NCBI GenBank assembly: GCA_965233585.1
Contig: CBDDTI010000746.1
Span: 512,001 to 576,000, forward strand
Reading direction: 5' to 3'
DNA length: 64,000 bases
Source of the DNA: a bacterium
GTDB lineage: Bacteria > SAR324 > NAC60-12
Below are positions 4,009-50,221 of this stretch, piece by piece. The position numbers were made by a program, and so were the translations under genes. The number at the start of each line of letters is the position of its first letter. The first letter of the stretch is position 1. Under the pieces are notes generated by a model, which had not been told where the DNA came from, did no database searches, and saw only the letters and a program-made list of their open reading frames with translations.

Positions 4009-5057
4009 GGAACAGGTTTTTCTACTTTGACAATTCCACGAAGTAAGCGTCCAAGAATGTCTGCTCCTGTGATGATTCGTTTTTGGTCTGTCCCCCAATA
4101 TAAAATCAAATCACGGTCAATCACGTCATCTTCAGGGTGTTCAGAAACGACAGAAAGCTCACGCAATAAATCCCCAAAGCGAATGTTAGAGTTGCGAACA
4201 ATCAACGGACGGTGGCAATGGAAATAGGGATTAAACATGCCTTGATGATAAATCTGGTCTCTCAAAAAAGAATCTGCATCAAGTGCCATACAGGGTTGCC
4301 CTTGTTCCTCTACCAAAATAATCCATTTTCTGCCAGACCTTTGAATGCTTTGCAAAAATTCATCTTGTGGAGAGTCAAAGGACTCTGGAATGACTGGAAT
4401 CCCAAACTTGGTCTTGACTTGAACAATGCTGGAGGGGTCTATTTCTTCACCTTCTTGATGAATCTTTAAATCATCAAACTTTAAAAAATTTAATGCTCCA
4501 ACTCCCTCCACTTCTCCAATGTCAGAAGTTTTTGAGGTCATGTGTTTTTTAATCATCAAGCTAAAACTTTTTTCTTCTAGGTAAGCAGGTCTTTCACGAC
4601 CCAACCAAAAATCCAAAAATAATGCTGATGGTTTAGCGATGGGATAAAGCAAAATTTGATAGACTCGCACCAAAGGAGAGAACAATGACCCGATGTACAA
4701 AGAACGTCTTGAAAAATAGGCTTGGGGAATGATTTCTCCAAAAATGGTGATGCCTAATGTGGAAAGTAAAAACGCACTGACGCCTGAAAAAAGAGAGTCT
4801 AGCAGGATTGTAAGTAAGCAGTTGACAGAAACATTGCCCCAAAGCAGTGTAGTCAAAAGTAAGTGAGAGTCTTTGCGGAGTTCCAAAACCTTTTTGGCTC
4901 GGGTGTCTCCTGACTCTGCTTTGACTTCCAGATTAAGCCGTCCAAGACCAAACAACCCCAACGTTAATCCTGAAAAAACAGCAGATTGGACAAAACTTAA
5001 AACGATTCCTATCAATTTTAAAACGAAGAACGTGTCTCCATTTAGTTGTAGCATCAT
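4005..5057 (-). CDS. CNNM/DUF21 domain membrane protein
   Basis: SAVFSGLTLGL, LLTTLLWGNVSVN and IFGEIIPQA are CNNM transmembrane-domain motifs. Confidence 0.88.
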   Translation of the reverse strand: MMLQLNGDTFFVLKLIGIVLSFVQSAVFSGLTLGLFGLGRLNLEVKAESGDTRAKKVLELRKDSHLLLTTLLWGNVSVNCLLTILLDSLFSGVSAFLLSTLGITIFGEIIPQAYFSRRSLYIGSLFSPLVRVYQILLYPIAKPSALFLDFWLGRERPAYLEEKSFSLMIKKHMTSKTSDIGEVEGVGALNFLKFDDLKIHQEGEEIDPSSIVQVKTKFGIPVIPESFDSPQDEFLQSIQRSGRKWIILVEEQGQPCMALDADSFLRDQIYHQGMFNPYFHCHRPLIVRNSNIRFGDLLRELSVVSEHPEDDVIDRDLILYWGTDQKRIITGADILGRLLRGIVKVEKPVP

Positions 5058-5268
5058 GTGCGGTCAAAGATGGCAAAAGTCAGAGATTGTAACATGAATT
5101 TACAGGATATTCAGGTTAAAAAATTGAACATGGTTAGCTAAATCTAGTCTTTTGCCTGAAAGACTTTGATTGACTTGTTGACAGGGAACAAGGTTTGAAA
5201 AAAAACAAAAAGAAAGCTGAAAAATCGGAATGCTTCCAAAATCAGGTTAAAAATTGTCAAAAAAGGAC

Positions 5269-5298
5269 TTGACAAATTTTTGACGTTTCAATTAGAAT
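5269..5298 (+). promoter_or_regulatory. sigma70-type promoter for the leader peptide / rhodanese cluster
   Basis: TTGACA (5269-5274), 18 bp spacer, TAGAAT (5293-5298). Confidence 0.6.
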
Positions 5299-5353
5299 GT
5301 TCACTTTTTGAATTTTTCGCTAATCGCTAAAATATCTAACACAGAGTTCCCCA

Positions 5354-5440
5354 ATGAGTGACTTGATTTTACTGTCCTTTGGTATGTCATCATCTCAACC
5401 CCTTCCTTCTGACTTCTGTTGTTGCTGTTGTTGCAGCTAA
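5354..5440 (+). CDS. Putative poly-cysteine leader peptide MSDLILLSFGMSSSQPLPSDFCCCCCCS
   Basis: ATG 5354, six consecutive TGY codons (5417-5434), TAA 5438-5440; lies between the promoter and sulfur-uptake genes. Below the ORF-track cutoff. Confidence 0.7.
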   Translation: MSDLILLSFGMSSSQPLPSDFCCCCCCS

Positions 5441-5522
5441 CATCTTCTTCTTTCAAAAAGAGTTTCTTCTGTTAGGAACTCCAAATAATCAATCTCGTAC
5501 ATCTTGATTTATTTCAAAAACG

Positions 5523-5565
5523 ATTGAGAGAACCGTTTGTTCTTGAATGGCTTGTCTCAATTTTT
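5523..5565 (+). terminator. Candidate attenuator terminator hairpin
   Basis: ATTGAGA (5523-5529) pairs with TCTCAAT (5555-5561), inner CCGTTT/GAATGG stem, then a T-rich tail. Confidence 0.4.
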
Positions 5566-5685
5566 AGGCTTTTTTCACAAAGCCAACCGACTGGGAAATG
5601 TGGTTGTTTCCCAGTTGATTTGATTCACTATCATTAATAAAAGGAGAAAAAATGATAAAAAAATTCATACAACCAGCTTTGAAAA
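5540..5685 (+). repeat. Repeated 5' leader/RBS/signal-peptide-start module, copy 1
   Basis: Core GACTGGGAAATGTGGTTGTTTCCCAGT...ACTATCATT...AAAAGGAGAAAAAATGATAAAAAAATTCATACAACC; matches the copies at ~11234 and ~12177. Confidence 0.9.
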
Positions 5686-6590
5686 TATACATGGCATGTG
5701 TATTTTCATTTTCTAGTGCCTTTGCAGTGACAACTTTTCAATCACCATTGATTGATGCACAGAGTCTGTCAAAACGTCTGGGGCAAGTCACGGTCTTGGA
5801 CATACGAAGCCAGAAAGACTACAACAGCTCGCACATTACAGGTGCGGTCAATTCCCCGTATCAAAAATGGAGGGTGAGTAGAAACGGGGTAGTAGGGCTT
5901 TTGCCTGAAGCTGACTATGTGGAAAACCTTATCCAAAAGGCAGGAATTGATGAAACACAATCGGTTGTCGTGGTCTTTGGAAATGTGAAGGGTTCAGACT
6001 TTGGAAGTGCTGCAAGGGTTTACTGGACTCTTAAAGTAGCTGGGCTGACTGACATCGCAATTCTTGACGGAGGCTTCAAAAACTGGCAAGATTCAGGCTA
6101 TGAAACTGATGCACAAGCTGTAACTCCTCAAATCTCCTCCTTTACTCTTGAGAAGTTTGACGATGCTTACTTGACTGATGCGCAAGGAGTTCAAAGCTCA
6201 CAAGGAGACCCTAATGTTGTGCTATTAGATGCAAGACCAGATGACCAATATCAAGGTTACCAGAAGCATTCTAAAGCAAAATACGGAGGCACGATTCCTG
6301 ATTCTCAACAATTTTCGCAATTCAAGGTCTTTGCAGAAGATGGGACGATTGTCAATCAAGCGACTTTGAAAAAACTTGCTCAAGGTTTAAATTTTGATGG
6401 GCAAAAAAGCATCGTGTCTTTTTGTAACACTGGACATTGGGCGGCAACGAACTGGTTTGTGTTTTCTGAACTTTTAAACTATGACGTCAAACTTTATGAT
6501 GGTTCTATGGTAGATTGGACTCATAAAAACTTGGAAGTTGCTAACCAAAAAAATAGACTTCAACTTTGGTGGCATGAGGTCAGCAATTAG
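5652..6590 (+). CDS. Exported tandem-domain rhodanese / sulfurtransferase
   Basis: Signal peptide (SSAFA); HITGAVN, AARVYWTL, LDGGFKNW, active-site CNTGHWA, LYDGSMVDW. Confidence 0.92.
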   Translation: MIKKFIQPALKIYMACVFSFSSAFAVTTFQSPLIDAQSLSKRLGQVTVLDIRSQKDYNSSHITGAVNSPYQKWRVSRNGVVGLLPEADYVENLIQKAGIDETQSVVVVFGNVKGSDFGSAARVYWTLKVAGLTDIAILDGGFKNWQDSGYETDAQAVTPQISSFTLEKFDDAYLTDAQGVQSSQGDPNVVLLDARPDDQYQGYQKHSKAKYGGTIPDSQQFSQFKVFAEDGTIVNQATLKKLAQGLNFDGQKSIVSFCNTGHWAATNWFVFSELLNYDVKLYDGSMVDWTHKNLEVANQKNRLQLWWHEVSN

Positions 6591-6593
6591 CCC

Positions 6594-7745
6594 ATGTCTG
6601 TTTTAGCCTCTCTTCAATCAGTCAAGCGACTGAACTTGTACCCGGCTTTTTTGATTCCTGCTTCACTACTGCTTTATGTGGTAGTGGTTGCAGGGGTGCG
6701 AAGCACTTTGCTTATCATCTTGGGTATGATGCTGGGGTTATTTTTTGTCCAAGGCTCTATTGGTTTTACAGTGGCTTGGAGACGTTTCATTGTCTTAAAA
6801 GACCCCAGCGGTATGTTTTTGCAGTGCGTCCTTTTGGCTGTGGGTATGTTTTTGTTCATACCGACACTTTCTTCTTATGAAAGCCTTCAGCCAGCAGTAG
6901 GACCGATTAGTGTCAGTTTACTGATTGGAGCATTTTGCTTTGGCTTTTTTATGCAAATTGCCAACGGCTGTGGTTCTGGTCTTGTGGCAAACGCAAGTAG
7001 CGGGAATCAAACAGTGTTAGCCTTTTTCTTTTTTGCAATAGGAGCGTTTTTAGGGACTTTCCACTTGTCTTGGTGGCTTTCTTTAGGCAGTCTAGGTCAG
7101 GTCATTTTGTACAAAGAAGTAGGGAGTGCTTTGACCCTGATGATACAAAGTTTTGTCCTGCTGTTACTTGCTTTCATAGTGTATTTGAGATGCAAAAACA
7201 CACCTTATGACCTTTGGAAGTATCAAGGTAGAGTCCCCTTGATTTGTGTCGCTTTGGTTGCATTGACATCTTATGCTGTTTTACTGATTAGTGCAGTGCC
7301 TTGGGGAATTGTCTATGGTTTAGGACTTTGGGTTGCTAAAATCGTACAAGCATTGGGATTCTCTGTCACTAGTCTCACGTTTTGGTCTCAAGAAGCAACT
7401 CAAGCCACATTGCAAAATAGTCTTTTGTTAGACAATACTTCACTGACAAATGTTGGTTTTATGGTGGGAATTTGGGCAGTCTCTTATCTGAACAAAGTCA
7501 AAAAGCCGTTGCAATCCACTCAAAACGAGCCAAATGATCTGGAAAGAAGAAAAAAATTATTTAATGTGATTGGTGCATTGGGAGCAGGTTATTTTTCACG
7601 GGTTGCATTTGGTTGTAATATTGGTGCATTATATGGCGGAATCATCAGCAGCAGTTTACATGGTTGGATTTGGTTTGCTGCTGCTTTTTTGGGGAGTGTC
7701 TTAGCTGTCAAAGTGAGACCTTTTTGTGGTATGAAACAGACATAA
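6594..7745 (+). CDS. YeeE/YedE family sulfur-compound (thiosulfate-type) transporter
   Basis: Polytopic membrane protein with NGCGSG and FGCNIGALYGGI..SLHGWIW motifs. Confidence 0.9.
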   Translation: MSVLASLQSVKRLNLYPAFLIPASLLLYVVVVAGVRSTLLIILGMMLGLFFVQGSIGFTVAWRRFIVLKDPSGMFLQCVLLAVGMFLFIPTLSSYESLQPAVGPISVSLLIGAFCFGFFMQIANGCGSGLVANASSGNQTVLAFFFFAIGAFLGTFHLSWWLSLGSLGQVILYKEVGSALTLMIQSFVLLLLAFIVYLRCKNTPYDLWKYQGRVPLICVALVALTSYAVLLISAVPWGIVYGLGLWVAKIVQALGFSVTSLTFWSQEATQATLQNSLLLDNTSLTNVGFMVGIWAVSYLNKVKKPLQSTQNEPNDLERRKKLFNVIGALGAGYFSRVAFGCNIGALYGGIISSSLHGWIWFAAAFLGSVLAVKVRPFCGMKQT

Positions 7746-7750
7746 GCATT

Positions 7751-7945
7751 ATGAAAGTAACGCTTTATTTGATTCCAGCAATGATCCTTGCACTGTTGCT
7801 TTGGGATTTGTTTGATACGGGTGTGAATCCTTACTTGATTCCTCCCCCTTTGGGGTGGATTCAGGATTCAAATATCAATCAAGGTGCGCATTGTAGTCTT
7901 AGTACGCCTGTCAAAAAGTCAGCTGAAGATTTTTTCTTCCGTTAA
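7751..7945 (+). pseudogene. Possible N-terminal remnant of a TauC/SsuC-type ABC permease
   Basis: MKVTLYLIPAMILALLLWDLFDTGVNPYLIPPP resembles the first helix and loop of NitT/TauT permeases, then degenerates and stops. Confidence 0.4.
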
Positions 7946-8046
7946 GAAATAATTCTCTTTCTTTCATGGGGTACCGCTTTGAAAGTTTGTTTTTCAAGTG
8001 GCACTTTTCAAGCATTGTTAAGTGCATAATTGAGGGTTTGTGAACA

Positions 8047-9183
8047 ATGAGTTTGTTCCATGGTGTAGCCACTAGTGAATTTAAAGCATTTCGGGATTCA
8101 ACATACGGGCAATGGTCAGAATCTTTTTTACAGAATCTGTATATGGTTACCCTAGATGCTCTACCATTCCTAGCACTGGGATTTTTTATCGCTGGGCTGT
8201 TAAAATCTTTTGTGCCAGATAAATGGGTGTTACGAGTTCTTGGCAATCCGTCCTCTTGGTTTTTGTCCCCCTTAAAAGGAGCCGTTTTTGGAACGCCCCT
8301 GCCCCTGTGTTCATGCAGTGTGGTTCCTGTAGTTGTGGAATTAAAAAAACAAGGGGCAAACAAAGGATCATTAGTATCGTTTCTAGTATCTGGGCCTGAA
8401 ACAGGGGCGGACAGTTTAAGCCTGTCCTATGCTTTGTTAGGACCGATTATGATGGTTGCAAGATTGTTAAGTGCCTTGGCAACCGCCATTGTAACCGCGT
8501 GGACAGTTATTGTATTGACAGGTAAGCACATGCCCACACACGATACAGAGGACGGGGCATGTTGTACCCGTTCATCCCATGCCCACACACAAGATTCTTG
8601 CCGTCATACTTCCAATGATTCGCCAAAGACTTTATGGTATCGTTTTTTAATGGGGCAACGCTGTGCGTTTACCAATTTATTAGACGATGTGTTTAAATAT
8701 ATGGTGCTAGCACTGATATTTACAGCAGTGATGCGGACATTTGTGCCGGCGACATTCTTGGGACAACATAGTTATGGGTTGTTTCCCATGGCATTGGCGG
8801 TTTTGGTGGCGTTACCTATGTATGTTTGTGCGTCTGCGGCCACGCCTATTGCCGCATGGTTAATTTTATCGGGCATATCTCCCGGGGTAGCATTGGTATT
8901 TATGCTAGCCGGTCCTGCGTCCAATATTGCAACGCTAATGGTTGTTTCCAATATGTTAGGTCGATCAGCAATGATTGTTTATGTTGTGTCCATTAGTGTA
9001 CTGTCCATACTGGCAGGGCAGGCATTAAACACACTAGAAGCCATATACAACTGGAACATTTTATCCCAAACAGGGCAAGGCTATATCTTAAACAAACAAA
9101 TCGCCCTTGCCCTGAGTATATTTATTATCCTATGTGCTATTAAACCCTTACGAAAATATATAGGCAAAACGATTTATGTGTAG
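8047..9183 (+). CDS. DUF318 / SO_0444-type metal or metalloid permease
   Basis: PLPLCSCSVVP, FLVSGPETGADS, PMYVCASAATP, LAGPASNIAT; His/Cys-rich loop ACCTRSSHAH. Confidence 0.88.
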   Translation: MSLFHGVATSEFKAFRDSTYGQWSESFLQNLYMVTLDALPFLALGFFIAGLLKSFVPDKWVLRVLGNPSSWFLSPLKGAVFGTPLPLCSCSVVPVVVELKKQGANKGSLVSFLVSGPETGADSLSLSYALLGPIMMVARLLSALATAIVTAWTVIVLTGKHMPTHDTEDGACCTRSSHAHTQDSCRHTSNDSPKTLWYRFLMGQRCAFTNLLDDVFKYMVLALIFTAVMRTFVPATFLGQHSYGLFPMALAVLVALPMYVCASAATPIAAWLILSGISPGVALVFMLAGPASNIATLMVVSNMLGRSAMIVYVVSISVLSILAGQALNTLEAIYNWNILSQTGQGYILNKQIALALSIFIILCAIKPLRKYIGKTIYV

Positions 9184-9282
9184 TGTTATATAATTTATGG
9201 AAAAATAAATAATTCAAAATACTCTAGAGCCTTGATTCTTTTTTGAAAAAGATGAAATGATAATTTTTGACAAAAAACTCAC

Positions 9283-10221
9283 ATGATACCAACACAAAAA
9301 ACTAAAGAAGTCAGGTCTTTGAATCATTTGATAGATGCTTCAGTCCTCAAGCAATTTTATACTCGTTCTGATGTTCCTGCATTGACCTATACTTTTTGCC
9401 ACTTTGGATTGCTAGCCATTGGAGCAGTTTTGATTGATTGGCTGATAGAGACAGGGCAAAGCAGTCCTTTGTTGTGGTTAGTGCTTTTTCTGCATGGAAT
9501 CGTTCTTGTGCATTTATTTGCTCCAATGCACGAGACTTCTCATGCCAGCGCCTTTAAAACTCCTCTTTTGAATAAAATCGTCCTGCATCTGACAGGGTTT
9601 TTACTCTTTATTCCCGGACGTTATTTTACTTTGGAACATCATCGGCATCATGCCTTCACAAATCAACCTGAACACGACCCCGAGTATATTCCCAATGTAG
9701 AAAGCCTGAAAGGATACCTGCTTTACGCAACAGCATTACCCTATTTTCTTGGGATTTTGAAGACTTTTTTGCATACACTCACGGGTCAACTGACAGAAAA
9801 TGAACAAAAATTTATCAAGAGCAAAAATAAAAAACGGGTGATTTTGGAATCATGGGTCATGCTGACAGGCTATGCCATCTTGCTAGGAGGTTCTTTTTAT
9901 TTAGAAAACTCCTTGTTGTTGTGGGTGTGGATTATTCCAAGAATAATGAGCGAACCTGTCATGCGGTTGATTCGTATGAGTGAGCATGTAGATTGTCATT
10001 TCACCAAGGACATTCGTGCCAACACACGCACAACCTACACTTTGAATTGGGTGTCTTCATTGAATTGGAAAATGAACTATCATGCAGAGCATCATGCCGC
10101 TCCCAATATTCCTTTTTTTCGTTTAAAAGATTTACATGGATTGATTGAAGGTGAGTTACAACATCTTGCAAAAGATGGTTATTATATGACTCATCAAGGG
10201 ATCATTCAGAAACGTTTGTAA
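9283..10221 (+). CDS. Membrane fatty-acid desaturase superfamily di-iron enzyme
   Basis: His boxes HETSH, HHRHH and HAEHH with transmembrane segments. Confidence 0.88.
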   Translation: MIPTQKTKEVRSLNHLIDASVLKQFYTRSDVPALTYTFCHFGLLAIGAVLIDWLIETGQSSPLLWLVLFLHGIVLVHLFAPMHETSHASAFKTPLLNKIVLHLTGFLLFIPGRYFTLEHHRHHAFTNQPEHDPEYIPNVESLKGYLLYATALPYFLGILKTFLHTLTGQLTENEQKFIKSKNKKRVILESWVMLTGYAILLGGSFYLENSLLLWVWIIPRIMSEPVMRLIRMSEHVDCHFTKDIRANTRTTYTLNWVSSLNWKMNYHAEHHAAPNIPFFRLKDLHGLIEGELQHLAKDGYYMTHQGIIQKRL

Positions 10222-10269
10222 CCCAAACAGATTGTTCATTTTTATTTTTAACATTCAAAAAAGTTTGAC

Positions 10270-11226
10270 ATGATGATTCATAGTTTAGTAGATGCTTTTC
10301 AAATACTCAGAAATTCTTCCTTCAATGGAGTGCAAGGCTGTTATGCGTTTGAGGGAAGTAGCACTGGCAAGACTGTTGGGATTGGTGTGATGACTCACGG
10401 TAACGAGCCTAGCGGTCTTGCTGGCTTTCAGTACTTTCTTGAAAAGAATGTCAAACCGGAAAGCGGGAGGGTGATTTTTACATTGAACAATCTAAAAGCC
10501 GCAGAGCTTTATTTTGATGACCTTGACAAGCCATCTGCACAAAAAGAAATTTATCGCTTTCTCAATCTCAACATGAACCGATTACCTTGCAACCTAGAAC
10601 CAACAAATGATGAGTATGAAATTGCAAGGATTAAAGAGTTGTTGCCTATCTATGAAACTTTTGATTATGGCTTAGATGTTCACAGCACTCTAAACGATTC
10701 AGAACCTACAATTATCAATATCAGTGACCGCTTAGATCATGGATTGTTTAGGGGATTCCCTCCGCAAATGAAAAAAATCATCTCTAACATTGCCAACATT
10801 CAAATTGGAGTGCCTGTTTCTAAATTGTTTGGAGGTCAAAAACGAAGCATTCCCATTCTTTCAATAGAAACAGGTAGCCATGAAGAACCAACAGCTTTTG
10901 AGACAGCCGTCAGCTGTATTTTGCAATTTTGCAAAAATTGTGGTGTCCTTCCGCAAGAAGAGATGCCAGAGAAGCGAAGTTTTTATGATTATCAAACAAT
11001 CGCCTCTATTTTCTATCCCAAAGAAGATTACTTGACACCAAAAGGGTTTTTGGCATTTGAAGAATTGACTAGGAATCAGGTGCTAGGCATCAACAACCTT
11101 GACCCTCCTGTCCTTTGTCCTGTGGATTGTTTGAATCTTTTTGGAAGAAAGAGGTTGGACAAAAGCCCATCTATTGCTGAAGAGGCGTTTTTCCTGCTTG
11201 ATTTTCCTAAACTAGTTAAGTTGTAA
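10270..11226 (+). CDS. Succinylglutamate desuccinylase / aspartoacylase family metallo-hydrolase
   Basis: THGNE, NMNR, LDVHST and IETG motifs. Confidence 0.8.
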   Translation: MMIHSLVDAFQILRNSSFNGVQGCYAFEGSSTGKTVGIGVMTHGNEPSGLAGFQYFLEKNVKPESGRVIFTLNNLKAAELYFDDLDKPSAQKEIYRFLNLNMNRLPCNLEPTNDEYEIARIKELLPIYETFDYGLDVHSTLNDSEPTIINISDRLDHGLFRGFPPQMKKIISNIANIQIGVPVSKLFGGQKRSIPILSIETGSHEEPTAFETAVSCILQFCKNCGVLPQEEMPEKRSFYDYQTIASIFYPKEDYLTPKGFLAFEELTRNQVLGINNLDPPVLCPVDCLNLFGRKRLDKSPSIAEEAFFLLDFPKLVKL

Positions 11227-11233
11227 TGACTGA

Positions 11234-11378
11234 TTCTTGAATGACTTCTATAATTTGAGGCTTTTTCAAAAAAAGCCAGCTGACTGGGCAATGTGGTTGT
11301 TTCCCAGTCAATTTCATTAACTATCATTTGAAAAGGAGAAAAAAATGATAAAACAATTCATACAAGCAGTACTTAAAT
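11234..11378 (+). repeat. Repeated leader module, copy 2
   Basis: TTCTTGAATG...AGGCTTTTT..AAAGCC..GACTGGGCAATGTGGTTGTTTCCCAGTC...AAAAGGAGAAAAAAATGATAAAACAATTCATACAA. Confidence 0.9.
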
Positions 11379-12136
11379 CTTTAATGGTGTTCCTAGTTCT
11401 TGGTCTCATCTCAACTTATGCAACTGCTGAAAAATTAAACCAAAAATTGGCAGCGACTCAGGTGATTGATTTGACTCAACCCATGTATGATGGCATGCCA
11501 TATTGGCCAGGAGGAGTCCCTTTTAAAAAGGAACGTCTTGTGGATTATGACCAAGGCTACCAGCTACATCAGTTTACTATGGGAGAAAATACAGGGACAC
11601 ATGTTGATGCCCCTTCTCACTTTGTCAAAGGTCAACACACGATTGACCAAATTCCACTCAATCAGTTAGTTCTACCCATTGCTGTCATTGACGTTCAAAG
11701 ACAAGCCAGAGCCAATGCTGATTATCAACTCACTGTAGAAGAGGTCAAGAAATGGGAGAAGAAGAATGGACAGATTCCCTCTGGCAGCTTGGTTGTTTTA
11801 AATACAGGCTGGCATAAGAAGTTTAAAGACCCTAAAAGTTATGTCAATTTAGATGAAAACAATGTCATGCACTTTCCCGGGTTTTCTGCTGATTCTGCCA
11901 AACTCCTAATCAAACGAAACGTCACAGGCATTGGAATAGACACATTGAGTCTTGATTATGGAATGTCCCAAGACTTTGCAACCCATTTGCTCATGCTTCA
12001 AGCTAACAAATATCAAATAGAAAATATGGCCAATTTAGATGCGTTACCAGAGACAGGTGCCACAGCAGTGATTGGGGTCTTACCAATCAAGGAAGGCTCT
12101 CAAGCACAAGCTAGAATCCTAGCCTTTTTGCCATAA
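11345..12136 (+). CDS. Cyclase (kynurenine formamidase-like) family hydrolase with signal peptide
   Basis: IDLT, ENTGTHVDAPSH, HFPGFS, GIDTLSLD, IENMANL motifs; hydrophobic N-terminus. Confidence 0.9.
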   Translation: MIKQFIQAVLKSLMVFLVLGLISTYATAEKLNQKLAATQVIDLTQPMYDGMPYWPGGVPFKKERLVDYDQGYQLHQFTMGENTGTHVDAPSHFVKGQHTIDQIPLNQLVLPIAVIDVQRQARANADYQLTVEEVKKWEKKNGQIPSGSLVVLNTGWHKKFKDPKSYVNLDENNVMHFPGFSADSAKLLIKRNVTGIGIDTLSLDYGMSQDFATHLLMLQANKYQIENMANLDALPETGATAVIGVLPIKEGSQAQARILAFLP

Positions 12137-12176
12137 TTTTAACTTTCTCTTCTTATTTGTAAGAAAAGAAAACGTA

Positions 12177-12272
12177 GCTGGGAGATGTGGTTGTTTCCCA
12201 GTCCATTTCATTAACTATCATTTGAAAAGGAGAAAAAAATGATAAAAAAATTCATACAACCATTGCTGAAAA
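12177..12272 (+). repeat. Repeated leader module, copy 3
   Basis: GCTGGGAGATGTGGTTGTTTCCCAGTCCATTTCATTAACTATCATTTGAAAAGGAGAAAAAAATGATAAAAAAATTCATACAACC. Confidence 0.9.
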
Positions 12273-13054
12273 CACTCATCTTGTCAAAGTTGATGCTGGC
12301 AGTTTCAATGCCTGCCTTTGCTCAAAGCAAGTCTGTCATAGATGAGATTATTGAACGTGGCTCAATCCGTGTCGGCATGAGTGCCTTTGTTCCTTGGGCT
12401 TTTTTGAACAAGGAAGGGGAATATGTTGGCTTTGAAGTTGACGTTGCCAAACAGCTGGCAGAGGATTTAGGGGTAGAATTACAGCTTGTGCCAACTGCGT
12501 GGGACGGGATTATTCCTGCCCTACAAACAGGCAAGATGGATGTGATTATTGGAGGTATGAGCGTGACAACTAAACGTAATCTGAAAGTCAACTTTTCCAT
12601 TCCATACGGGGGTGGAGAATACGTCGTGGTTGCCAACATGAAAGACAAAGAGAAGTTCACATCATTGAAGCAATTCAATAGCCGCAAGATTACTCTTGCT
12701 GTCAGACGTGGAGCGATTCCTGCCATACTCGCCAAAAGATTTTTTCCCAAAGCCAAACTTCGTCAATTTGATGATGATGGAATTGCAGCACAAGAAGTCG
12801 CTAATGGCAATGCAGATGCGAGTATTGATAATTCTATGGGAGCATTAGACAGCTTGGAAAACCACAAAGGACAGGTTTATCTGGTAGAAGATGGTGCGAA
12901 TTTGGCGAAGTTGCCTGCCGCTTTTGCTTTGCGAAAAGGAGACATTGAATCCCTCAATGTCTTCAATAATTGGATTCGTATCAACCAAGCCAACGGCTTC
13001 TTGCAAGCAAGGGACGCCTACTGGTTCAAAAGCAGAGATTGGAAAGAGGAATAA
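12239..13054 (+). CDS. Polar amino-acid ABC transporter substrate-binding protein (family 3)
   Basis: Signal peptide (PAFA); GFEVDVAK, WDGIIPAL..GKMDVIIGGMSVT..R..V.FS.PY. Confidence 0.93.
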   Translation: MIKKFIQPLLKTLILSKLMLAVSMPAFAQSKSVIDEIIERGSIRVGMSAFVPWAFLNKEGEYVGFEVDVAKQLAEDLGVELQLVPTAWDGIIPALQTGKMDVIIGGMSVTTKRNLKVNFSIPYGGGEYVVVANMKDKEKFTSLKQFNSRKITLAVRRGAIPAILAKRFFPKAKLRQFDDDGIAAQEVANGNADASIDNSMGALDSLENHKGQVYLVEDGANLAKLPAAFALRKGDIESLNVFNNWIRINQANGFLQARDAYWFKSRDWKEE

Positions 13055-13057
13055 ACA

Positions 13058-13102
13058 GCATGGCTAAACTTTCTTGTCAATCCGCTTGACAAGCTGCCAT
13101 GC
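13058..13102. terminator. Hairpin between convergent genes
   Basis: GCATGGC...CTTGTCAA-TCCGC-TTGACAAG..GCCATGC inverted repeat. Confidence 0.55.
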
Positions 13103-13104
13103 AA

Positions 13105-14199
13105 TCAATCAAGTGGCTTGGTCTCACCAATTTTAAAAATTTTTAAATTTTCTGGTGGAATATTCAATGCTTGTGCCGCTTTTTTAAAATCTTCAATAGG
13201 CTCATTGAAGGGGTGTAAACCAAGTTGAATTGTCCCCCAATGAGCAGGCATGAAGTTTTGAGCCTTGAGTTCCAAGCCAATTTTGAGGCAGTTGATGGGT
13301 TCGCAGTGACTGCCTTTCATCACAAAAGAGGGTTTATAAGGAGAGATGGACAAAATAGCCAAATCAAAGGGTCCGTATTTTGCCAGCGATTTGTAATGCG
13401 TGCCATATTCTAAATCGCCACTAAAGAAAATCTTTTTTTGAGTTGAAGCAATAGAAAACCCTGCCCAAAGCGTGTCGTTTTTTTTAAACGGACTTCGCTT
13501 AGACCAATGAATGACAGGCAAGGCAATGATTTGTATGCCTTTTACCTTCGTTTCCTCATACCAGTCTAGCTCAATCACTTGAGCAAAGCCTTTATCCTTA
13601 GCATAAACTCCTAGCTTCAAAGGGACAACGACTGTAATGTTGTCTTTGTTTGGAATTTTTTCCAAAGACGGTAAATCTAAGTGGTCATAATGGCTATGAG
13701 AAATGAGAATGATGTCAATCGGTGGTAAGTCTTCTATTTTAACTCCTGGATCCACGCTTCGTTTAGGACCAAAAGGAGGAACTGGTGTTGCATAATCACT
13801 AAAAAATGGGTCTGTTAAAACAACTTTTCCATCTAAACGAATCAAAGTTGTCATGTGTCCAATCCAAGTGACAATTTCTTGCTCTGTGCCAAAACTTTTG
13901 AGCAATTCTACTGCTGCAGGATAAGGTATGACATGACCCTCTGGAATTTCTATATCATAATCTTCTGTGACCTTATTGATAAAAAATTTACGAAAGCGAT
14001 AGAAAGCAGATACCTCTTCAGCAGGTATGCCACCGGGTAAGTTTCTAAATCCATTGTCAGTATGATGATAAGGTCTTTCTTCTGGAGTCTCTGCAAAAGA
14101 ACAAGAGTTGATGATAAAACCCAATAAAAATACAATTTTAATTTTTGTCAATCTAAATGTCTTTTGACCTGTATTTATTAAAAGTTTAATGAAATCCAT
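13105..14199 (-). CDS. MBL-fold metallo-hydrolase (NAPE-PLD/RomA-like)
   Basis: TWIGH, LTDPFFS, ISHSHYDHLD, HWSKR, FFSGD, PAHWGT. Confidence 0.9.
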   Translation of the reverse strand: MDFIKLLINTGQKTFRLTKIKIVFLLGFIINSCSFAETPEERPYHHTDNGFRNLPGGIPAEEVSAFYRFRKFFINKVTEDYDIEIPEGHVIPYPAAVELLKSFGTEQEIVTWIGHMTTLIRLDGKVVLTDPFFSDYATPVPPFGPKRSVDPGVKIEDLPPIDIILISHSHYDHLDLPSLEKIPNKDNITVVVPLKLGVYAKDKGFAQVIELDWYEETKVKGIQIIALPVIHWSKRSPFKKNDTLWAGFSIASTQKKIFFSGDLEYGTHYKSLAKYGPFDLAILSISPYKPSFVMKGSHCEPINCLKIGLELKAQNFMPAHWGTIQLGLHPFNEPIEDFKKAAQALNIPPENLKIFKIGETKPLD

Positions 14200-18530: not shown

Positions 18531-20267
18531 TTAGCTACTTTGCCATCGTTTCACTAAAATATCGTAATTGACGGTTTCACCCTGTGGCTTTTCATTTTTC
18601 AACTTAGGCTTGGGAGAACCAGCTTTGTTCAGCCAATAAGAGGGGTCTCTTTCTTTGTTGAGCCTTGGACCGCATCCTCCGTAAACGTTAGCTCGTTCAT
18701 CAGCAACCTGCATTCTTGCCATGACTTGATCCATTTCACTAGCAAGACGATCCATCGCTTCTTGTGGGGTGAACGCTCCAGAGTTAACATCTCCAATCTG
18801 TTGCCACCAAATTTGGGCAAGTTTTGGATAATCAGGGACATTGACACCAGTTGGAGACCAACGAACACGGTCAGGCGAACGATAAAATTCCACTAAACCT
18901 CCCAACTTAGGAGCACGTTCTGTAAAAGACTGATGGCGAATGTCGCTGTCCCGAATGGGAGTTAAGCCCACATGCGTTTTCTTCAAAGACACTGTTTTAG
19001 ACACAGTGAATTGTGCATAAAGCCATGCCGCCTTTCTTCTGTCAACAGGTGTTGATTTGAACAAAGTCCATGAACCTGCATCTTGGTAGCCTAATTTCAT
19101 ACCTTTTTCCCAATACGGACCATGAGGAGAGGGAGCCATACGCCAAAGAGGCATTCCTTCTTTGTCTACGGTGTTGTTTCCTTCCTCAATAGGTTTGACC
19201 ATATCAGGAAGAAAGGAAGTGTACCAGAAGATTTGTTGAGCCACGTTTCCAATAGAAAGGGCTGGTAAGGATTGATAAAAGTCATAACTCGCTGCAGCAG
19301 GCGGGGCATAGTTTCTAAGCCACTCGTCCCACTTTCTAATTGCATAAACTGCAGCAGGAGCATTGGCAGCACCACCCCTTGAAACAGAAGCACCTACTGG
19401 ATTGCAAGTGTTTTTTTCCATACGGATTCCCCATTCATCAACGGGGACGCCATTGGGTAATCCCTTGCTTCCAGCTCCTGCCATAGAAAGCCAAGCATCT
19501 GTCATTCGCCAACCTAAATCAGGCGCCCGCTTTCCATAATCCATGTGTCCATAAACCCTGACACCATCAATGTTTTTGACATCATTAGTAAAAAAGTCTG
19601 CAATATCTTCATAAGCAGACCAGTTAACAGGAACTCCTAATTCATAGCCATATTTGGCTTTGAAACGTTTTTTGAGGTCAGGGCGGTCAAACCAATCTTT
19701 TCTGAACCAATAAAGGTTAGCAAATTGTTGGTCAGGCAGTTGGTATAACTTCCCATCTGGACCTGTGGTGAAGGACTTCCCCATAAAATCATCAATGTCC
19801 AATGTAGGCAATGTGACACCTTTACCCTCGCCATTCATCCAATCAGTCAAATTGACAGCCAGTTGCAATCGCGAATGCGTTCCAATCAAATCAGAATCAT
19901 TGACGTAGGCATCGTAAAGGTTGCGTCCAGTTTGCATTTGAGTTTGCACTGCCTGCACAACCTCGCCTTCTCCTAAAATTTGATGATTGACTTTGATCCC
20001 TGTGATGTCTTCAAAAGCCTTTGCCAGTACCTTTGCCTCATAGTCATGAGTTGCAATAGATTCTGAAAGGACATTGATTTGCATGCCCTTAAAGGGACGA
20101 GATGCTTTGATGAACCAATCCATCTCAGACATTTGTTGCTTCTTGGAAAGTGTGGAGGGCTGAAATTCTTGGTTGATCCATTTCTCAGCCTCCTCTTTTC
20201 CTGCCATTGCCGTCGTACACATGCCCACTGCAAGTGCTACATTGATACACGAATTTAAAAGTTTCAT
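18531..20267 (-). CDS. Sugar/glycerol ABC substrate-binding protein (GlpV-like)
   Basis: Signal peptide; EFQPSTL, NDSDLIGTH, QLPDQQFANLYWFR, GHMDYGK, NVPDYPKLAQ. Confidence 0.9.
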   Translation of the reverse strand: MKLLNSCINVALAVGMCTTAMAGKEEAEKWINQEFQPSTLSKKQQMSEMDWFIKASRPFKGMQINVLSESIATHDYEAKVLAKAFEDITGIKVNHQILGEGEVVQAVQTQMQTGRNLYDAYVNDSDLIGTHSRLQLAVNLTDWMNGEGKGVTLPTLDIDDFMGKSFTTGPDGKLYQLPDQQFANLYWFRKDWFDRPDLKKRFKAKYGYELGVPVNWSAYEDIADFFTNDVKNIDGVRVYGHMDYGKRAPDLGWRMTDAWLSMAGAGSKGLPNGVPVDEWGIRMEKNTCNPVGASVSRGGAANAPAAVYAIRKWDEWLRNYAPPAAASYDFYQSLPALSIGNVAQQIFWYTSFLPDMVKPIEEGNNTVDKEGMPLWRMAPSPHGPYWEKGMKLGYQDAGSWTLFKSTPVDRRKAAWLYAQFTVSKTVSLKKTHVGLTPIRDSDIRHQSFTERAPKLGGLVEFYRSPDRVRWSPTGVNVPDYPKLAQIWWQQIGDVNSGAFTPQEAMDRLASEMDQVMARMQVADERANVYGGCGPRLNKERDPSYWLNKAGSPKPKLKNEKPQGETVNYDILVKRWQSS

Positions 20268-27020: not shown

Positions 27021-27044
27021 AAAACATCTGAAAACCTCCCTCCT

Positions 27045-27270
27045 GTCATGGCTCACCTTGACACGCAATCTCTAAACAACCGTCATGGCACACTCTGAAC
27101 TTAGTCATTACTCACCTTGACCCGCAATCTCTCTTGTTTTCTATCCGCGTCATTGCTGACCTTGAAAAAAGTCATTGCGGGACCTGACCCGCAATCTCAT
27201 CTTATTTTTTGAGATTCCGTGTCAAGCACGGAATGACAGAGGAATTTGCTCACCTTGACCCGCAATCTCA
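27045..27270. repeat. Cluster of REP-like palindromes
   Basis: At least five copies of (GTCATT)..(C/T)TGACCCGCAATCTC or its inverse GAGATTCCGTGTCAAGCACGGAATGAC. Confidence 0.85.
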
Positions 27271-27725
27271 TTCTTCTTAAAACACAGGACAAACACTTGG
27301 GTTTGTCCCTACTCTGCCACCTGCTTGCTTTTCATCATTTTTCTGTTTTTTGACTTCCCAATCTGCTTACTTTTCAGATTTTTTTGAAAAATCTTCAAAA
27401 CTTTTTAAATTTTTTAAATTTTTTTCAAACTACCTTCACACCTTCATCTTTCCTGACTTCCCAAAGACATTCTTTTGACAAAAAATCTTCAAAATTCCTT
27501 AAAAACCAAAAAAATCTCCTCAAATCCTGAGTCTTGACTTGGTTTTTTTTGTACGTGCATAATGCTCGTTTTGGTTTTTCGCAAAACTCCCATCTTGAAA
27601 ATAAATGAAGGTTTCATTTCAAGAGGAGAGTTTTTCGTGTGACAGCACCCTAAAGGGTGCTGTTGTGTTGTTGGTTTTTAATTTTTTCTCAATCTTGTTC
27701 AATTTTGTTTAATAGGTAGGTTTTT

Positions 27726-29618
27726 ATGCAAAAGTTCATCAATCGTTGTTTTGTTCATTTGGCATCTGTTGTCAAACCTTCTGTTGTCCAGACAGGTGTT
27801 TGCCTGCTGTGCATCACGACTCTCTTTGCCTGCAGTAGTGACGATGGTGGTGTGTCCACGGTGACCGTCACAGAAAAAGTAGTGCCACCAAGCACTCCGA
27901 GTGAAGTGAAAACGAGCGAGGTCAAAGCCAGCAGTGTCAAGGTCAGCTGGTTGCCTTCAGCAGATTCAGATGGTCAAGTGGAAGGTTATGAAGTCTCTTA
28001 CAAGACAAGTAGCGGGTCATGGACTGGCACACAAACCACCACGCAAACCAGTCTGATTGTGTCAGGATTACAGCCTGAAACCAGCTACACTTTTCGTGTT
28101 CGTGCCAAAGATGATGAGGGAGACTGGAGTCCTTACCAACAAAGCTCTGCTGTCAAGACTGCACCCAACGCACCAACTTCTCTTGCTATTTCAGGCAGAA
28201 CGCTCACCTTTGCCACCACTTCAGGCAAGAGTTACGAATGCACCACGCATGGCACAAGTGCCACTGCCGCACAAATCACAAACTGCACCAGCCCTTTTCG
28301 CTTTGGAGATGATGCCATTGCTAAAGACAACCTTTGCGTTCGTGTCAAAGCATCTGGCACTCCTGCTTCTGATTGGGCTTGTTACGCACAAGCGATTTTT
28401 AAGAAAGTCTTGACTAAACAATGGTCCAAACTGCTTGGCAGTAGCAGTTATGATGAAGGAAAAGGAGTGAGTGTGGATTCTTCAGGAAATGTGTATGTGA
28501 CAGGATACTCTGGGGGAAATTTTGATGGACACAGCCGTTCAGGAGGTTGGGACATGTTTTTAGTGAAGTATGACAGTTCAGGTAATAAGAAGTGGTCTAA
28601 ATTGCTTGGCAGTAGCAGTGATGATAGAGGAAGAGGAGTGAGTGTAGATTCTTCAGGAAATGTCTATGTGACAGGATACTCTAAGGGAAATTTTGATGGA
28701 CACACCAATTCAGGAAGAGGGGACATATTTTTAGTGAAGTATGACCCTTCAGGCAACAAAAAGTGGTCTAAACTGCTTGGCAGTAGCAGTTTTGATTATG
28801 GAAAAGGAGTGAGTGTGGATTCAGCAGGGAATGTTTACGTGACAGGATACTCTGGGGGAAATTTTGATGGACATGTCAATTCAGGAAGTTGGGACATGTT
28901 TTTAGTGAAGTATGACAGTTCAGGTAATAAGAAGTGGTCTAAATTGCTTGGTACTAGCAGTTGGGATTTAGGAGAAGGAGTGGTTGTGGATTCTGCAGGC
29001 AATGTGTATGTGACAGGATACTCTGGGGGAAATTTTGATGGACACAGCAATTCAGGAGGTTGGGACATGTTTTTAGTGAAATATGACCCTTCAGGTAATA
29101 AGAAGTGGTCTAAACTGCTTGGCAGTAGCAGAAATGATGAAGGAAGAGGAGTGAGTGTGGATTCTGCAGGCAATGTGTATGTGACAGGAGAATCTGGGGG
29201 AAATTTTGATGGACACAGCAATTCAGGAAGTGATGATATGTTTTTAGTGAAGTATGACAGTTCAGGAGTGAAGAAGTGGTCTAAACTGTTTGACAGTAGC
29301 AGTTGGGATTCAGGAAGAGGAGTGAGTGTGGATTCAGCAGGCAATGTGTATGTGACAGGAATATCTGTAGGAATATCTGAAGGAAATTTTGATGGACACA
29401 GCAATTCAGGAAGTGATGATATGTTTTTAGTGAAGTATGACAGTTCAGGTAATAAGAAGTGGTCTAAACTGCTTGGCACTACAGATTATGATAGAGGATA
29501 TGGAGTGAGTGTGGATTCAGCAGGCAATGTTTACGTCACAGGAAGCTCTTGGGGAAATTTTGATGGACATGTCAATTCAGGAGATAGGGACATGTTTTTA
29601 ATCAAGTTTGGGAGGTAG
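27726..29618 (+). CDS. Surface lipoprotein: fibronectin type III domain plus seven SBBP-type beta-propeller repeats
   Basis: Lipobox LFAC; FN3 motifs VSW...GYEV.Y...GLQPETSYTFRVRA; seven VSVDSSGNVYVTG...DMFLVKYD units. Confidence 0.9.
   Translation: MQKFINRCFVHLASVVKPSVVQTGVCLLCITTLFACSSDDGGVSTVTVTEKVVPPSTPSEVKTSEVKASSVKVSWLPSADSDGQVEGYEVSYKTSSGSWTGTQTTTQTSLIVSGLQPETSYTFRVRAKDDEGDWSPYQQSSAVKTAPNAPTSLAISGRTLTFATTSGKSYECTTHGTSATAAQITNCTSPFRFGDDAIAKDNLCVRVKASGTPASDWACYAQAIFKKVLTKQWSKLLGSSSYDEGKGVSVDSSGNVYVTGYSGGNFDGHSRSGGWDMFLVKYDSSGNKKWSKLLGSSSDDRGRGVSVDSSGNVYVTGYSKGNFDGHTNSGRGDIFLVKYDPSGNKKWSKLLGSSSFDYGKGVSVDSAGNVYVTGYSGGNFDGHVNSGSWDMFLVKYDSSGNKKWSKLLGTSSWDLGEGVVVDSAGNVYVTGYSGGNFDGHSNSGGWDMFLVKYDPSGNKKWSKLLGSSRNDEGRGVSVDSAGNVYVTGESGGNFDGHSNSGSDDMFLVKYDSSGVKKWSKLFDSSSWDSGRGVSVDSAGNVYVTGISVGISEGNFDGHSNSGSDDMFLVKYDSSGNKKWSKLLGTTDYDRGYGVSVDSAGNVYVTGSSWGNFDGHVNSGDRDMFLIKFGR
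28422..29615 (+). repeat. Seven 171-bp (57-aa) intragenic tandem repeats
   Basis: Units start at 28422, 28593, 28764, 28935, 29106, 29277 and 29460; unit 6 carries a 12-bp internal duplication. Confidence 0.95.
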
Positions 29619-29893
29619 GTTGCCAAGAGAAAGGTTGTAGTGGAGTTGGAAGGAGTGTTTGGAGTAGTATTTTGTCTTCCAGCAAGTGTTGTCATACTTG
29701 CTGTGAAAAGTCAAGTTTTTTTCTTAAAACGCTCCGTCACCTGCGGGCGTGTCTTGGTCATTGGGGACCTGACCCGCAATCTCATTCTTCTTTCATTCTG
29801 CCTTTATTTTTTTTCTGCTTTGTTCTCCCTTTTTCTCAAAAATCTGCTAGGCTAGGAGTTTAAGCTCGATAATCTTCAATTTAAGGAGTCAAG

Positions 29894-30610: not shown

Positions 30611-30822
30611 AGATTCCGCATCAAGTGCGGAATGAAGGAGAGAGTTTGCAGGTGTGGCTTTTTGTCATTGCGGGCTTGACCCGCAATCTCTCTTTTTCTC
30701 CTAATTTTTTCATTTTCCCAAACGACTTTTATTTTTTGAAATTCCGCATCAAGCACAGAATGACAGAGAACGTTTGAGATTCTGTGTCAAGCCCGCAATG
30801 ACAGAGGGTCGCACAGAATGAC
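30611..30822. repeat. Cluster of REP-like palindromes
   Basis: Canonical GTCATTGCGGGCTTGACCCGCAATCTC at 30664-30690; inverse copies at 30611, 30738 and 30776. Confidence 0.85.
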
Positions 30823-32446: not shown

Positions 32447-32528
32447 AGATTCCGTGTCAAGCACGGAATGACTAGAAGAGGCACGGAATGACAGGAGAGG
32501 GGGAATTGCTTCACTTGATTTGCAATCT
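32447..32528. repeat. REP-like palindromes
   Basis: AGATTCCGTGTCAAGCACGGAATGAC, a partial GCACGGAATGAC, and a degenerate CTTGATTTGCAATCTC. Confidence 0.8.
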
Positions 32529-32726
32529 CTCTTTTTCCTTTTTGTCTTTGAATTTGTTATGCTTTGACTCACACTTCATCAAGGATTTTGAAAAATGTTA
32601 GTGTCAGTACGCATGGGTTTTACAATGGACTTGATTGAAGGTTTTGATAAACTCTTGTAATTTTATGGGAAAGCTCGTAAGATAGTCCCTTGCTTTCAAA
32701 ACAATTCTTTTTTAAGTCAACTAAAC

Positions 32727-46655: not shown

Positions 46656-46731
46656 TGTTGCTGTTTTACAAGTAATTGGTTGTTGACAGATTTTTGATTG
46701 ATGCGGTCAAGTTTTAATGTTGCTGTTTTAC
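46633..46731 (+). repeat. 37-bp perfect direct repeat (46633-46669 and 46695-46731)
   Basis: TGATTGATGCGGTCAAGTTTTAATGTTGCTGTTTTAC twice, 25 bp apart. Confidence 0.95.
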
Positions 46732-50133: not shown

Positions 50134-50184
50134 ATGAATCAAAGAATGCGATGAATGACTTTTGAGGGAGGCTGTTTTTGGTGT
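50134..50184 (+). pseudogene. Degenerate duplicate of the first 17 codons of msrAB
   Basis: 43/51 identical to 50222-50272, with an in-frame TGA at codon 7. Confidence 0.75.
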
Positions 50185-50221
50185 CATCTCCTTTTAACAA
50201 CTTATTTTTTAACCAACCATT

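Follow-up and report, generated by a model that had tools for sequence, protein, structure and literature searches.

Why should three exported proteins of unrelated families, encoded within a single gene cluster, begin with nearly the same block of DNA? The question arises in a stretch of 64,000 nucleotides (nt) from a SAR324 bacterium (NAC60-12; assembly GCA_965233585.1, contig CBDDTI010000746.1, positions 512,001-576,000 of the forward strand), here termed the window, in which the starts of a rhodanese gene, a cyclase gene and the gene of a solute-binding protein (SBP) share a module composed of a hairpin, a spacer, a Shine-Dalgarno sequence (SD) and the first 8-11 codons. The genome has a G+C content of 41%, and the relatives of its proteins are mostly proteobacterial. 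A preliminary description of this locus had put forward two possibilities: a cis-acting RNA element that boosts the periplasmic components of the cluster, or a portable cassette for expression and export that recruited new genes. The explanation that we favour, and to which we assign about an even chance, is that of a translation-start cassette duplicated locally within a lineage-specific operon under the control of cysteine, the functional effects of which are those that we infer below from the sequence.

On direct reading, the near-identical blocks of the preliminary description are in place with all the elements ascribed to them, including the shared N-termini (MIKKFIQPALK, MIKQFIQAVLK and MIKKFIQPLLK) and the GGCTTT...AAAGCC stem common to copies 1 and 2 (H2 in Table 1). 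The hairpin pattern CTGGGNNATGTGGTTGTTTCCCAG, searched with up to three mismatches allowed, has three matches in the window (5591, 11284 and 12178), all of them on the forward strand and without mismatches, and no match in any of 100 dinucleotide shuffles. A repeat finder groups these sites into one family (D2) with three members of 118 nt, at 100, 79 and 70% identity to copy 1. From three bases before the hairpin through codon 11 the copies align without gaps, with a mean column identity of 90% over 102 columns and 70 invariant columns among the 88 of the core, and in all of them ACTATCATT and the ATG lie at offsets of 36 and 61 from the start of the hairpin. A covariance model of the module, built from the three copies and scanned with filters off over all 64 kb, recovers these sites alone, at 119-122 bits; after them come minus-strand reflections of the palindrome (25.9 and 20.7 bits), and the remainder do not exceed 13.1 bits (E of at least 2.3). 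The same scan upholds the observation that the membrane and cytoplasmic genes of the cluster lack the module, since it was found neither in the four cluster genes that lie between the rhodanese and the cyclase genes nor in any other gene of the cluster or the window.

The module does not correspond to any known RNA family among those searched. No Rfam family reaches its gathering threshold anywhere in the window, and the best score over a module is that of preQ1-II (23.9 versus 47 bits, E of 1.6); eight sub-threshold matches between 5000 and 12400 (E up to 5), comprising preQ1-II, small nucleolar RNAs and others, fall far below gathering and were set aside as chance. The exact hairpin has 0 matches in a set of one genome for each of 185,579 species, outside which the source genome and its close relatives fall, and a 150-nt query taken from copy 1 yields no blastn match in plasmid, phage or Escherichia coli collections. 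As regards a dispersed repeat, there are only three copies in the 64 kb of the window, all of them at gene starts, and their ends lack the uniformity of repetitive extragenic palindromic (REP) sequences or miniature inverted-repeat transposable elements (MITEs), copies 1 and 2 beginning about 50 nt further upstream than copy 3. On the other side, homology fades gradually past codons 8-11. Unequal and ragged ends of this kind are to be expected from segmental duplication rather than from a discrete element.

The relationships among the copies change along their length. Over the first 24 nt of coding sequence, copies 1 and 3 are identical (24/24) and copy 2 differs at two positions (K4Q and P8A); over the 36 nt from hairpin to ATG, copies 2 and 3 agree at 35 positions and each agrees with copy 1 at 26. 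Upstream of the hairpin, likeness is confined to copies 1 and 2, which share some 50 further bases that copy 3 does not have. This homology begins inside the loop of T1, a long imperfect hairpin that precedes copy 1, and hence copy 2 carries only the 3' half of T1; the relic contains a promoter-like sequence (ATGACT-17-TATAAT, 11226-11254, 10/12). Such a pattern fits successive duplications of different lengths, or else gene conversion between copies. Another duplicate of a gene start is found at msrAB, an msrA-msrB fusion, the first 51 nt of which recur at 85% identity 88 nt upstream of the gene (50133-50184 versus 50221-50272), in a reading frame that stops after six codons; gene-start duplications therefore recur in this genome.

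The recipients of the module span three Pfam families (Rhodanese, Cyclase PF04199 and SBP_bac_3). Their coding sequences have in common only the n-region, over 8-11 codons; past it, each gene has a hydrophobic core and a cleavage site of its own. As judged by eye, all three proteins carry Sec-type signal peptides, in which a hydrophobic core follows a KK start and the mature part is preceded by AFA, ATA and AFA, respectively. Among 391 proteins, the start pattern ^M[IL]K[KQR][FL][IL]Q is limited to the three window proteins and to P0124, the closest relative of the SBP. It occurs in none of the 119 cyclase relatives and 149 rhodanese relatives listed. The former, the N-termini of which were viewed out of 1295 relatives at E of at most 0.001, for the most part show a signal peptide at the N-terminus by eye, and not one of them begins with MIKxFIQ, so that the question of whether cyclase homologs differ from the window protein in this respect, raised in the preliminary description, is answered by signal peptides that are mostly present and of another type. 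The nearest cyclase relative is 71% identical among the matches listed. The nearest rhodanese relative, among those listed, is 45% identical; the N-termini of this family are unrelated to the module, and a crude pattern classes 77 of the 97 relatives of 280-345 amino acids as signal-peptide-like. As far as can be judged from these comparisons, the N-termini of the cyclase and the rhodanese are here of foreign origin, and because the cyclase relatives already have signal peptides of their own, the subfamily seems to have been exported beforehand and its start to have been overwritten in this genome. The portable cassette of the preliminary description thus survives as a portable 5' unit on three unrelated genes, but not as a means of conferring export, given that relatives mostly carry their own, unrelated signal peptides.

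The recruitment of a new gene, on the other hand, is borne out for the cyclase. Ten window proteins were compared by tblastn (E of at most 1e-8) with 37 loci that encode a cyclase relative, the best full-length match being 69% identical: the cyclase is detected in 37/37, and the other nine, which comprise six from the cluster and three from flanking genes, in 0/37. Hence, the place of the cyclase in this cluster is lineage-specific and the gene appears to have been recruited. The covariance model gives seven matches over the 619,990 bases of these loci, all at E of at least 3.7 and at most 17 bits, which we regard as chance. The loci in question (L001-L037; 54-70% identity to the window protein, signal peptides present) belong to Alpha-, Beta- and Gammaproteobacteria, cyanobacteria and Myxococcota-like, Flavobacteriales and Trueperaceae metagenome-assembled genomes, and the high conservation of the cyclase/formamidase subfamily across such different lineages suggests that it may be a widely transferred periplasmic enzyme.

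With regard to the source of the module, P0124 (83% identical to the SBP, 271 amino acids, on a 3.8-kb metagenome contig) starts with MIKKLIQPLLKTLIFSQLMLAVSMPTFAQS, sharing the MIKK(L/F)IQPLLK start and, in essence, the entire signal peptide of copy 3. P0125, 65% identical to the SBP, keeps the LQP..LVKSL pattern, and remoter SBP relatives differ. These likenesses weakly suggest that the SBP gene was the source of the coding part of the module; alternatively, the organism of P0124 may already have had the module. A protein search with residues 1-40 of the rhodanese for other MIKKFIQP starts returned the query alone and missed even the SBP of the window, and is hence uninformative.

In the predicted RNA, the hairpin has a 10-bp core, U-G and G-U pairs included, topped by a UGGU tetraloop, and is extended to a total of 11 pairs in copy 3 and of 13 in the two long-form copies (-13.2 to -16.4 kcal/mol). 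The loop had been described as one of 8 nt; half of it is taken up by U-G and G-U pairs, and what remains is the UGGU tetraloop. Neither does its invariance point to sequence-specific recognition, as had been suggested: full invariance is found in 24 of the 81 windows of eight columns that the core contains, so that the observation is uninformative, and when the variable columns were shuffled 20000 times, an invariant run of at least 18 columns arose in 3596 cases. The one compensatory pair is equalled by 277 of 500 shuffles and speaks neither for nor against RNA structure. Downstream of the hairpin comes a spacer of about 20 nt, AU-rich and with one or two G, and a second pairing that had gone unnoticed: UAUCAUU, within ACTATCATT, is perfectly complementary to the AAUGAUA that contains the start codon. 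The resulting stem measures 7 bp in copy 1 and 8 bp in copies 2 and 3 (-3.0 to -5.0 kcal/mol) and holds the SD in a loop of 13-15 nt. In the other 51 genes of the window, a start-codon stem attains 7 bp once and 6 bp twice; the 7-bp case is the permease gene at 8047, which belongs to the same cluster and is unrelated in sequence, and outside the cluster there are none among 47. At that permease start (8010-8056), an upstream CAUUGUU pairs with the AACAAUG that contains the start codon, with the SD in between, in an architecture like that of the module.

Two further candidates within the module were rejected. Mini open reading frames (ORFs) that start at an ATG inside the hairpin (MWLFPS, MWLFPSQFH and MWLFPSPFH, each followed by a stop, in copies 1, 2 and 3 at 5598-5618, 11291-11320 and 12185-12214; found by eye) are unlikely to be translated, their AUG being hidden within the stem and the sole SD-like sequence, GGGA, ending 1 nt before it. 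A CsrA-type site, which would place a GGA in the loop and another at the SD of every copy, was rejected on the ground that the hairpin carries its GGA in the stem and that copy 2 reads GGGCAA at that position.

The rhodanese gene, the first of the cluster, follows a gap of 594 nt that contains a leader of which copy 1 forms the 3' end. None of 100 shuffles reaches the folding stability of this leader (z = -3.61). Its components (Table 1) include a sigma-70-like promoter site, in a region where promoter-like sites are not enriched overall (23 versus 18.2 +/- 4.5 in shuffles), and an ORF located about 50 nt downstream of the predicted transcription start, in the only frame in which an ATG-initiated ORF passes through a run of cysteine codons, the last of which stands one codon before the stop. 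Beyond it, T1, which is absent from a simple terminator scan, runs into a U-run. The pyrimidine tract that follows the stop of the ORF has two possible pairing partners: the 5' arm of T1 (-10.8 kcal/mol) and, through its part at 5446-5453, the SD of copy 1 at 5640-5647 (8 bp, about -8.8 kcal/mol). A short ORF with a cysteine run between a promoter-like site and the first gene, followed by a hairpin and a U-run, is the arrangement of an attenuator, and the genes downstream have a link to sulfur: the rhodanese, the YeeE/Sulf_transp protein and the SBP, the best NCBIfam match of which is of the cystine-binding type, with a score below the cut-off. Taken together, the order of the elements and these sulfur-related genes make the leader a candidate cysteine-sensing leader-peptide attenuator, in which the tract at 5441-5455 would act as antiterminator, being free when the ribosome stalls in the cysteine run and covered when it stands at the stop. 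Alternatively, the ORF may encode a small cysteine-rich peptide, metal-binding or modified, or may be a product of chance in low-complexity DNA.

Table 1. Positions in the window of the leader elements, the module copies and the genes of the cluster
Feature	Position	Strand	Remarks
Sigma-70-like promoter site, TTGACA-18-TAGAAT	5269-5298	+	11/12; best in 5000-13300; consensus match only
Leader ORF, MSDLILLSFGMSSSQPLPSDFCCCCCCS then stop, 28 codons	5354-5440	+	six consecutive Cys codons 5417-5434; stop 5438-5440
Pyrimidine tract CAUCUUCUUCUUUCA	5441-5455	+	directly after leader-ORF stop
Small hairpin	5460-5481		between pyrimidine tract and T1
T1, long imperfect hairpin	5522-5565	+	stem 5522-5562, -15.2 kcal/mol, runs into UUUUU; candidate attenuator terminator
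Module copy 1 (long form)	5540-5684	+	3' half of T1; H2 5567-5584; H3 5588-5617 (core 5591-5614); AU-rich, G-poor spacer
Module copy 1, start region	ACTATCATT 5627-5635; SD AAGGAG 5641-5646; ATG 5652	+	rhodanese codons 1-11
Tandem-rhodanese protein, exported, 312 amino acids	5652-6590	+	Rhodanese x2; signal peptide MIKKFIQPALKIYMACVFSFSSAFA; FCNTGHW active-site cysteine; has module
YeeE/Sulf_transp membrane protein	6594-7745	+	without module
ArsP_1 / SO_0444-family permease	8047-9183	+	without module
FA_desaturase-like membrane protein	9283-10221	+	without module
318-amino-acid protein	10270-11226	+	no Pfam/NCBIfam match; without module
Module copy 2 (long form)	11234-11377	+	T1 3'-arm relic; H2 11259-11278; H3 11281-11310
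Module copy 2, start region	ACTATCATT 11320-11328; SD AAGGAG 11333-11338; ATG 11345	+	cyclase-family codons 1-11
Cyclase / kynurenine-formamidase-family protein, exported, 263 amino acids	11345-12136	+	PF04199; has module
Pyrimidine tract ACUUUCUCUUCUUAUUU	12142-12158	+	6 nt after cyclase stop; best upstream partner of copy 3 start region, -8.6 kcal/mol; lead only
Module copy 3 (short form)	12177-12271	+	H3 12177-12202, then spacer
Module copy 3, start region	ACTATCATT 12214-12222; SD AAGGAG 12227-12232; ATG 12239	+	SBP codons 1-11
Family-3 SBP, exported, 271 amino acids	12239-13054	+	SBP_bac_3; has module
Metallo-beta-lactamase-fold hydrolase, convergent	13105-14199	-	

On the reading that we favour, the three blocks would be paralogues descended from a single gene-start segment that local duplication or gene conversion spread as the operon was assembled, perhaps outwards from the SBP gene. 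Each copy brings with it a stable hairpin, the nearly G-free spacer, AAGGAG, AUG and 8-11 A-rich codons for the positively charged beginning of a Sec-type signal peptide. Such a segment would most likely serve as a common translation-initiation unit insulated from its context. In it, the hairpin would shield initiation from interference by upstream RNA and may protect the end of the RNA, and the strong SD and A-rich start would cause the three soluble periplasmic proteins to be translated above the membrane and cytoplasmic proteins of the same transcript, the weak UAUCAUU/AAUGAUA stem perhaps tempering or conditioning initiation. The operon as a whole would be switched by a cysteine-sensing leader made up of the promoter-like site, the 28-codon ORF and T1. 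The strength of the SD (AAGGAG) lends itself to this reading: its pairing with the anti-SD is predicted at -8.9 kcal/mol, which ranks the three module genes third to fifth among the 54 window genes compared, with two other genes stronger, and the four cluster genes without the module stand at -6.3, -6.1, +0.7 and -0.6 kcal/mol. Such a difference fits the boosting of the periplasmic components that had been proposed beforehand.

A number of observations weigh against this reading. The ranking of the SD is weakened because many of the gene starts used for comparison are longest-ORF calls and possibly wrong. The start regions are not unusually open, their folding energies of -3.0, -5.0 and -5.0 kcal/mol occupying ranks 11, 26 and 26 of 54, and the pairing of the start codon itself argues against a simple design for maximal translation. 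With only three near-identical copies, conservation cannot separate selection from recent common descent, and covariation among them is nil. Other exported proteins of the window, for example an SBP_bac_1 protein (18531-20267) and FlgH/FlgA, do not have the module, which is therefore not a general export-linked element. The SBP as donor hangs on one close relative, which might bear the module on all three genes. As for the leader, the SD of its ORF is weak (-2.4 kcal/mol), the cysteine run lies within low-complexity DNA of the (TGT/TGC)n type, and the window holds two other runs of five cysteine codons, in non-coding frames that by coordinates are antisense within long ORFs. T1 is present in every minimum-free-energy (MFE) fold in which ribosome positions were masked, and the antiterminator switch thus remains a candidate only. 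Lastly, 5-9% of random windows pair with the SD region equally well and the plus strand contains 185 such tracts, a background against which the anti-SD pairing of pyrimidine tracts that follow a stop is a lead only.

Since three near-identical copies allow neither conservation nor covariation to discriminate among competing explanations, these have to be weighed on arrangement and context. The module could be a neutral scar of the recombination that joined these genes, homology at gene starts having served as a crossover patch and the segment acting as nothing but an ordinary ribosome-binding site (RBS). Much agrees with this: three copies confined to 6.7 kb, boundaries that are ragged and unequal with homology decaying gradually after codons 8-11, a cyclase that is never met in this context at its 37 other loci, a second and decayed gene-start duplicate at msrAB, and constraint that leaves no statistical sign. 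A mere scar nonetheless sits less well with recipients that are all exported, with none of the four intervening genes having the block, and with an exact register from hairpin to ATG, free of insertions and deletions, that leads to an SD among the strongest in the window, and we consider this explanation rather unlikely. Improbable, in our estimate, is a post-transcriptional site at which an RNA-binding protein or small RNA acting in trans would co-regulate the three periplasmic proteins apart from the rest of the operon. The top of the hairpin and the spacer motifs are identical in all copies and keep a fixed distance to the SD, and the long single-stranded stretch rich in C, A and U ahead of the SD resembles small-RNA targets in the mRNAs of binding proteins. 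This invariance is, however, not above expectation, no Rfam family or further window copy corresponds to the module, the CsrA reading fails, and no partner sequence was identified. We are more doubtful still of a scheme in which the cysteine-run leader, which would be the first outside the Actinobacteria so far as our literature search goes, reports the charging of Cys-tRNA and the start cassette passes the signal on to the secreted components only, as a reusable and insulated module of translational coupling. Under that scheme, the start-codon stem and a pyrimidine tract after the preceding stop (that of the leader ORF for copy 1, that of the cyclase for copy 3) would mask the SD, the start of translation at the three exported genes would be governed by the passage of ribosomes just upstream, and the cassette would have been copied whenever a new periplasmic protein was added.

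The remaining explanations place the function of the repeat in transcription, and both of them strike us as very improbable. The near-perfect inverted repeat CTGGGAAA-N8-TTTCCCAG might be the operator of a dimeric transcription factor, accompanied by internal promoters from which the genes would be separately transcribed and co-regulated; the TATCAT in ACTATCATT resembles a -10 hexamer, and copy 2 is associated with the 10/12 promoter-like sequence described above. Against this, no acceptable -35 lies 16-18 bp from TATCAT (a TTGTTT is 19 bp away) and the promoter scan reports none, copy 3 is without an upstream promoter-like site, no regulator gene is found nearby, a search for transcription-factor genes within and beside the cluster having returned none, and the arms of the palindrome vary singly, including an A-to-G change that preserves a G-U pair in RNA only. 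Alternatively, the hairpin could act as an intrinsic terminator or attenuator before each exported gene, expression then depending on read-through. The stem contains five G-C pairs. A terminator scan does report the hairpins of copies 1 and 3 (13 and 11 pairs, tails ATTTGATTCA and CCATTTCATT), and stabilities of -13 to -16 kcal/mol are in keeping with this; the scan passes over copy 2, though, and the tails (UUGAUUUGAUU, UCAAUUUCAUU and UCCAUUUCAUU) are interrupted and poor in U beside the stem. A better candidate, T1 with its UUUUU, lies just upstream in copy 1, and a terminator placed before strong starts within an operon would be self-defeating unless it had an antitermination partner, of which none was found.

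Some features of the cluster and the window stand apart from this argument. The 318-amino-acid protein is placed by language-model features with deacylases of the AstE/AspA type (succinylglutamate desuccinylase / aspartoacylase; 0.98), an assignment that we treat as a lead only. Together with the desaturase-like protein, the formamidase-like cyclase and the amino-acid-type SBP, it hints at what might be a small pathway for an amino-acid derivative. Directly after the YeeE gene, a 64-codon ORF (MKVTLYLIPAMILALLLWDLF..., 7751-7945) resembles a small membrane protein and takes up the greater part of the 301 nt between the YeeE and permease genes. A sulfur-sparing composition of the module proteins was considered and found too weak to use: the cyclase and the SBP have no cysteine and the rhodanese two, and cysteine and methionine together amount to 1.6-3.4%, versus a median of 3.54% (range 1.52-7.12) in 31 other proteins. 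Elsewhere in the window, short palindromic intergenic repeats of four families (D4, D5, D7 and D9, several copies each; 27022-27276, 29754-29783, 30613-30776 and 32449-32536) contain TTGACCCGCAATCTC and ATTCCGCATCAAGTGCGGAATGA, look REP- or MITE-like and are unrelated to the module. A perfect 37-nt direct repeat (46633-46669 and 46695-46731, 62 nt apart) spans the gap between two convergent genes (45723-46655 on the plus strand and 46728-47609 on the minus strand), and six tandem units of 171 nt (28415-29581; 67-100% identity to the reference copy) lie within a fibronectin-III / SBBP beta-propeller gene (27726-29618). Finally, a gene at 51261-52280 encodes a protein of 339 amino acids that joins a BLUF domain to an adenylate/guanylate cyclase domain, as light-activated cyclases do. 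Such an architecture is known from a filamentous sulfur bacterium and hints, if weakly, at the type of organism.

If our favoured explanation is right, the module would be a natural counterpart of the insulated, standardised translation-start parts of synthetic biology, used three times in one operon and setting the ratio of soluble periplasmic to membrane components, and gene starts, including the first codons of the signal peptide, would have been exchanged between unrelated genes. The leader may matter more than the module: were it to function as proposed, ribosome-mediated sensing of cysteine would extend from the Actinobacteria to a very different bacterium and would be tied to a set of periplasmic rhodanese, YeeE and SBP, providing a handle on the regulation of sulfur acquisition. 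Even as a recombination scar, the module would still record how the operon was assembled.

Among known systems, the Erp loci of Borrelia burgdorferi are the closest parallel to the module. There, unrelated mature lipoproteins (OspE, OspF and Elp) share leader peptides and an upstream homology box (PMC12018966). As in these loci, the module is shared as upstream non-coding DNA plus an N-terminal leader on unrelated mature proteins. The Erp leaders, however, are those of lipoproteins encoded on multiple cp32 prophage plasmids under their own promoters, whereas the module belongs to Sec leaders of the AXA type, with no lipobox by eye, and its copies lie in one chromosomal operon, share only 8-11 residues and include a hairpin. 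Our search of the literature for a 5' untranslated region and signal peptide shared as one block within an operon retrieved nothing closer than the Borrelia Erp case. For the leader, the nearest parallels are mycobacterial short polycysteine ORFs, on which the stalling of ribosomes prevents an RNA structure from sequestering the RBS downstream (bioRxiv 10.1101/834739), and the leader ORFs with cysteine runs that are described upstream of cys and cbs operons in Actinobacteria (PMC1262725). The likeness to the mycobacterial attenuators lies in a short ORF with a cysteine run near its stop, upstream of sulfur or cysteine genes; those ORFs are leaderless and without obvious terminators, whereas the ORF described here starts about 50 nt past the predicted transcription start and precedes a terminator-like hairpin with a U-run. 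The cases of cysteine-run leaders found in our literature search are actinobacterial only, which is not proof that no others are in print.

The classical attenuators of the enterobacterial his, trp, phe, leu and thr operons consist of a promoter, an ORF with regulatory codons and a hairpin with a U-run before the first gene. The leader follows the same order of elements, with regulatory codons that end one or two codons before the stop; it departs from these systems in that cysteine is the amino acid concerned and in that the antiterminator is a candidate pairing of -10.8 kcal/mol that the MFE folds do not favour. In a similar vein, the 5' stem-loop of ompA and the REP sequence between malE and malF are stabilising or intercistronic hairpins that set differential expression within operons. 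As in ompA and malE-malF, each copy of the module sets a stable stem-loop beside the cistron of an exported protein, inside the transcript or at its head, but unlike the hairpin of malE, that of the module lies upstream of the genes it would favour and moves as part of a single duplicated segment that also comprises the RBS and the first codons.

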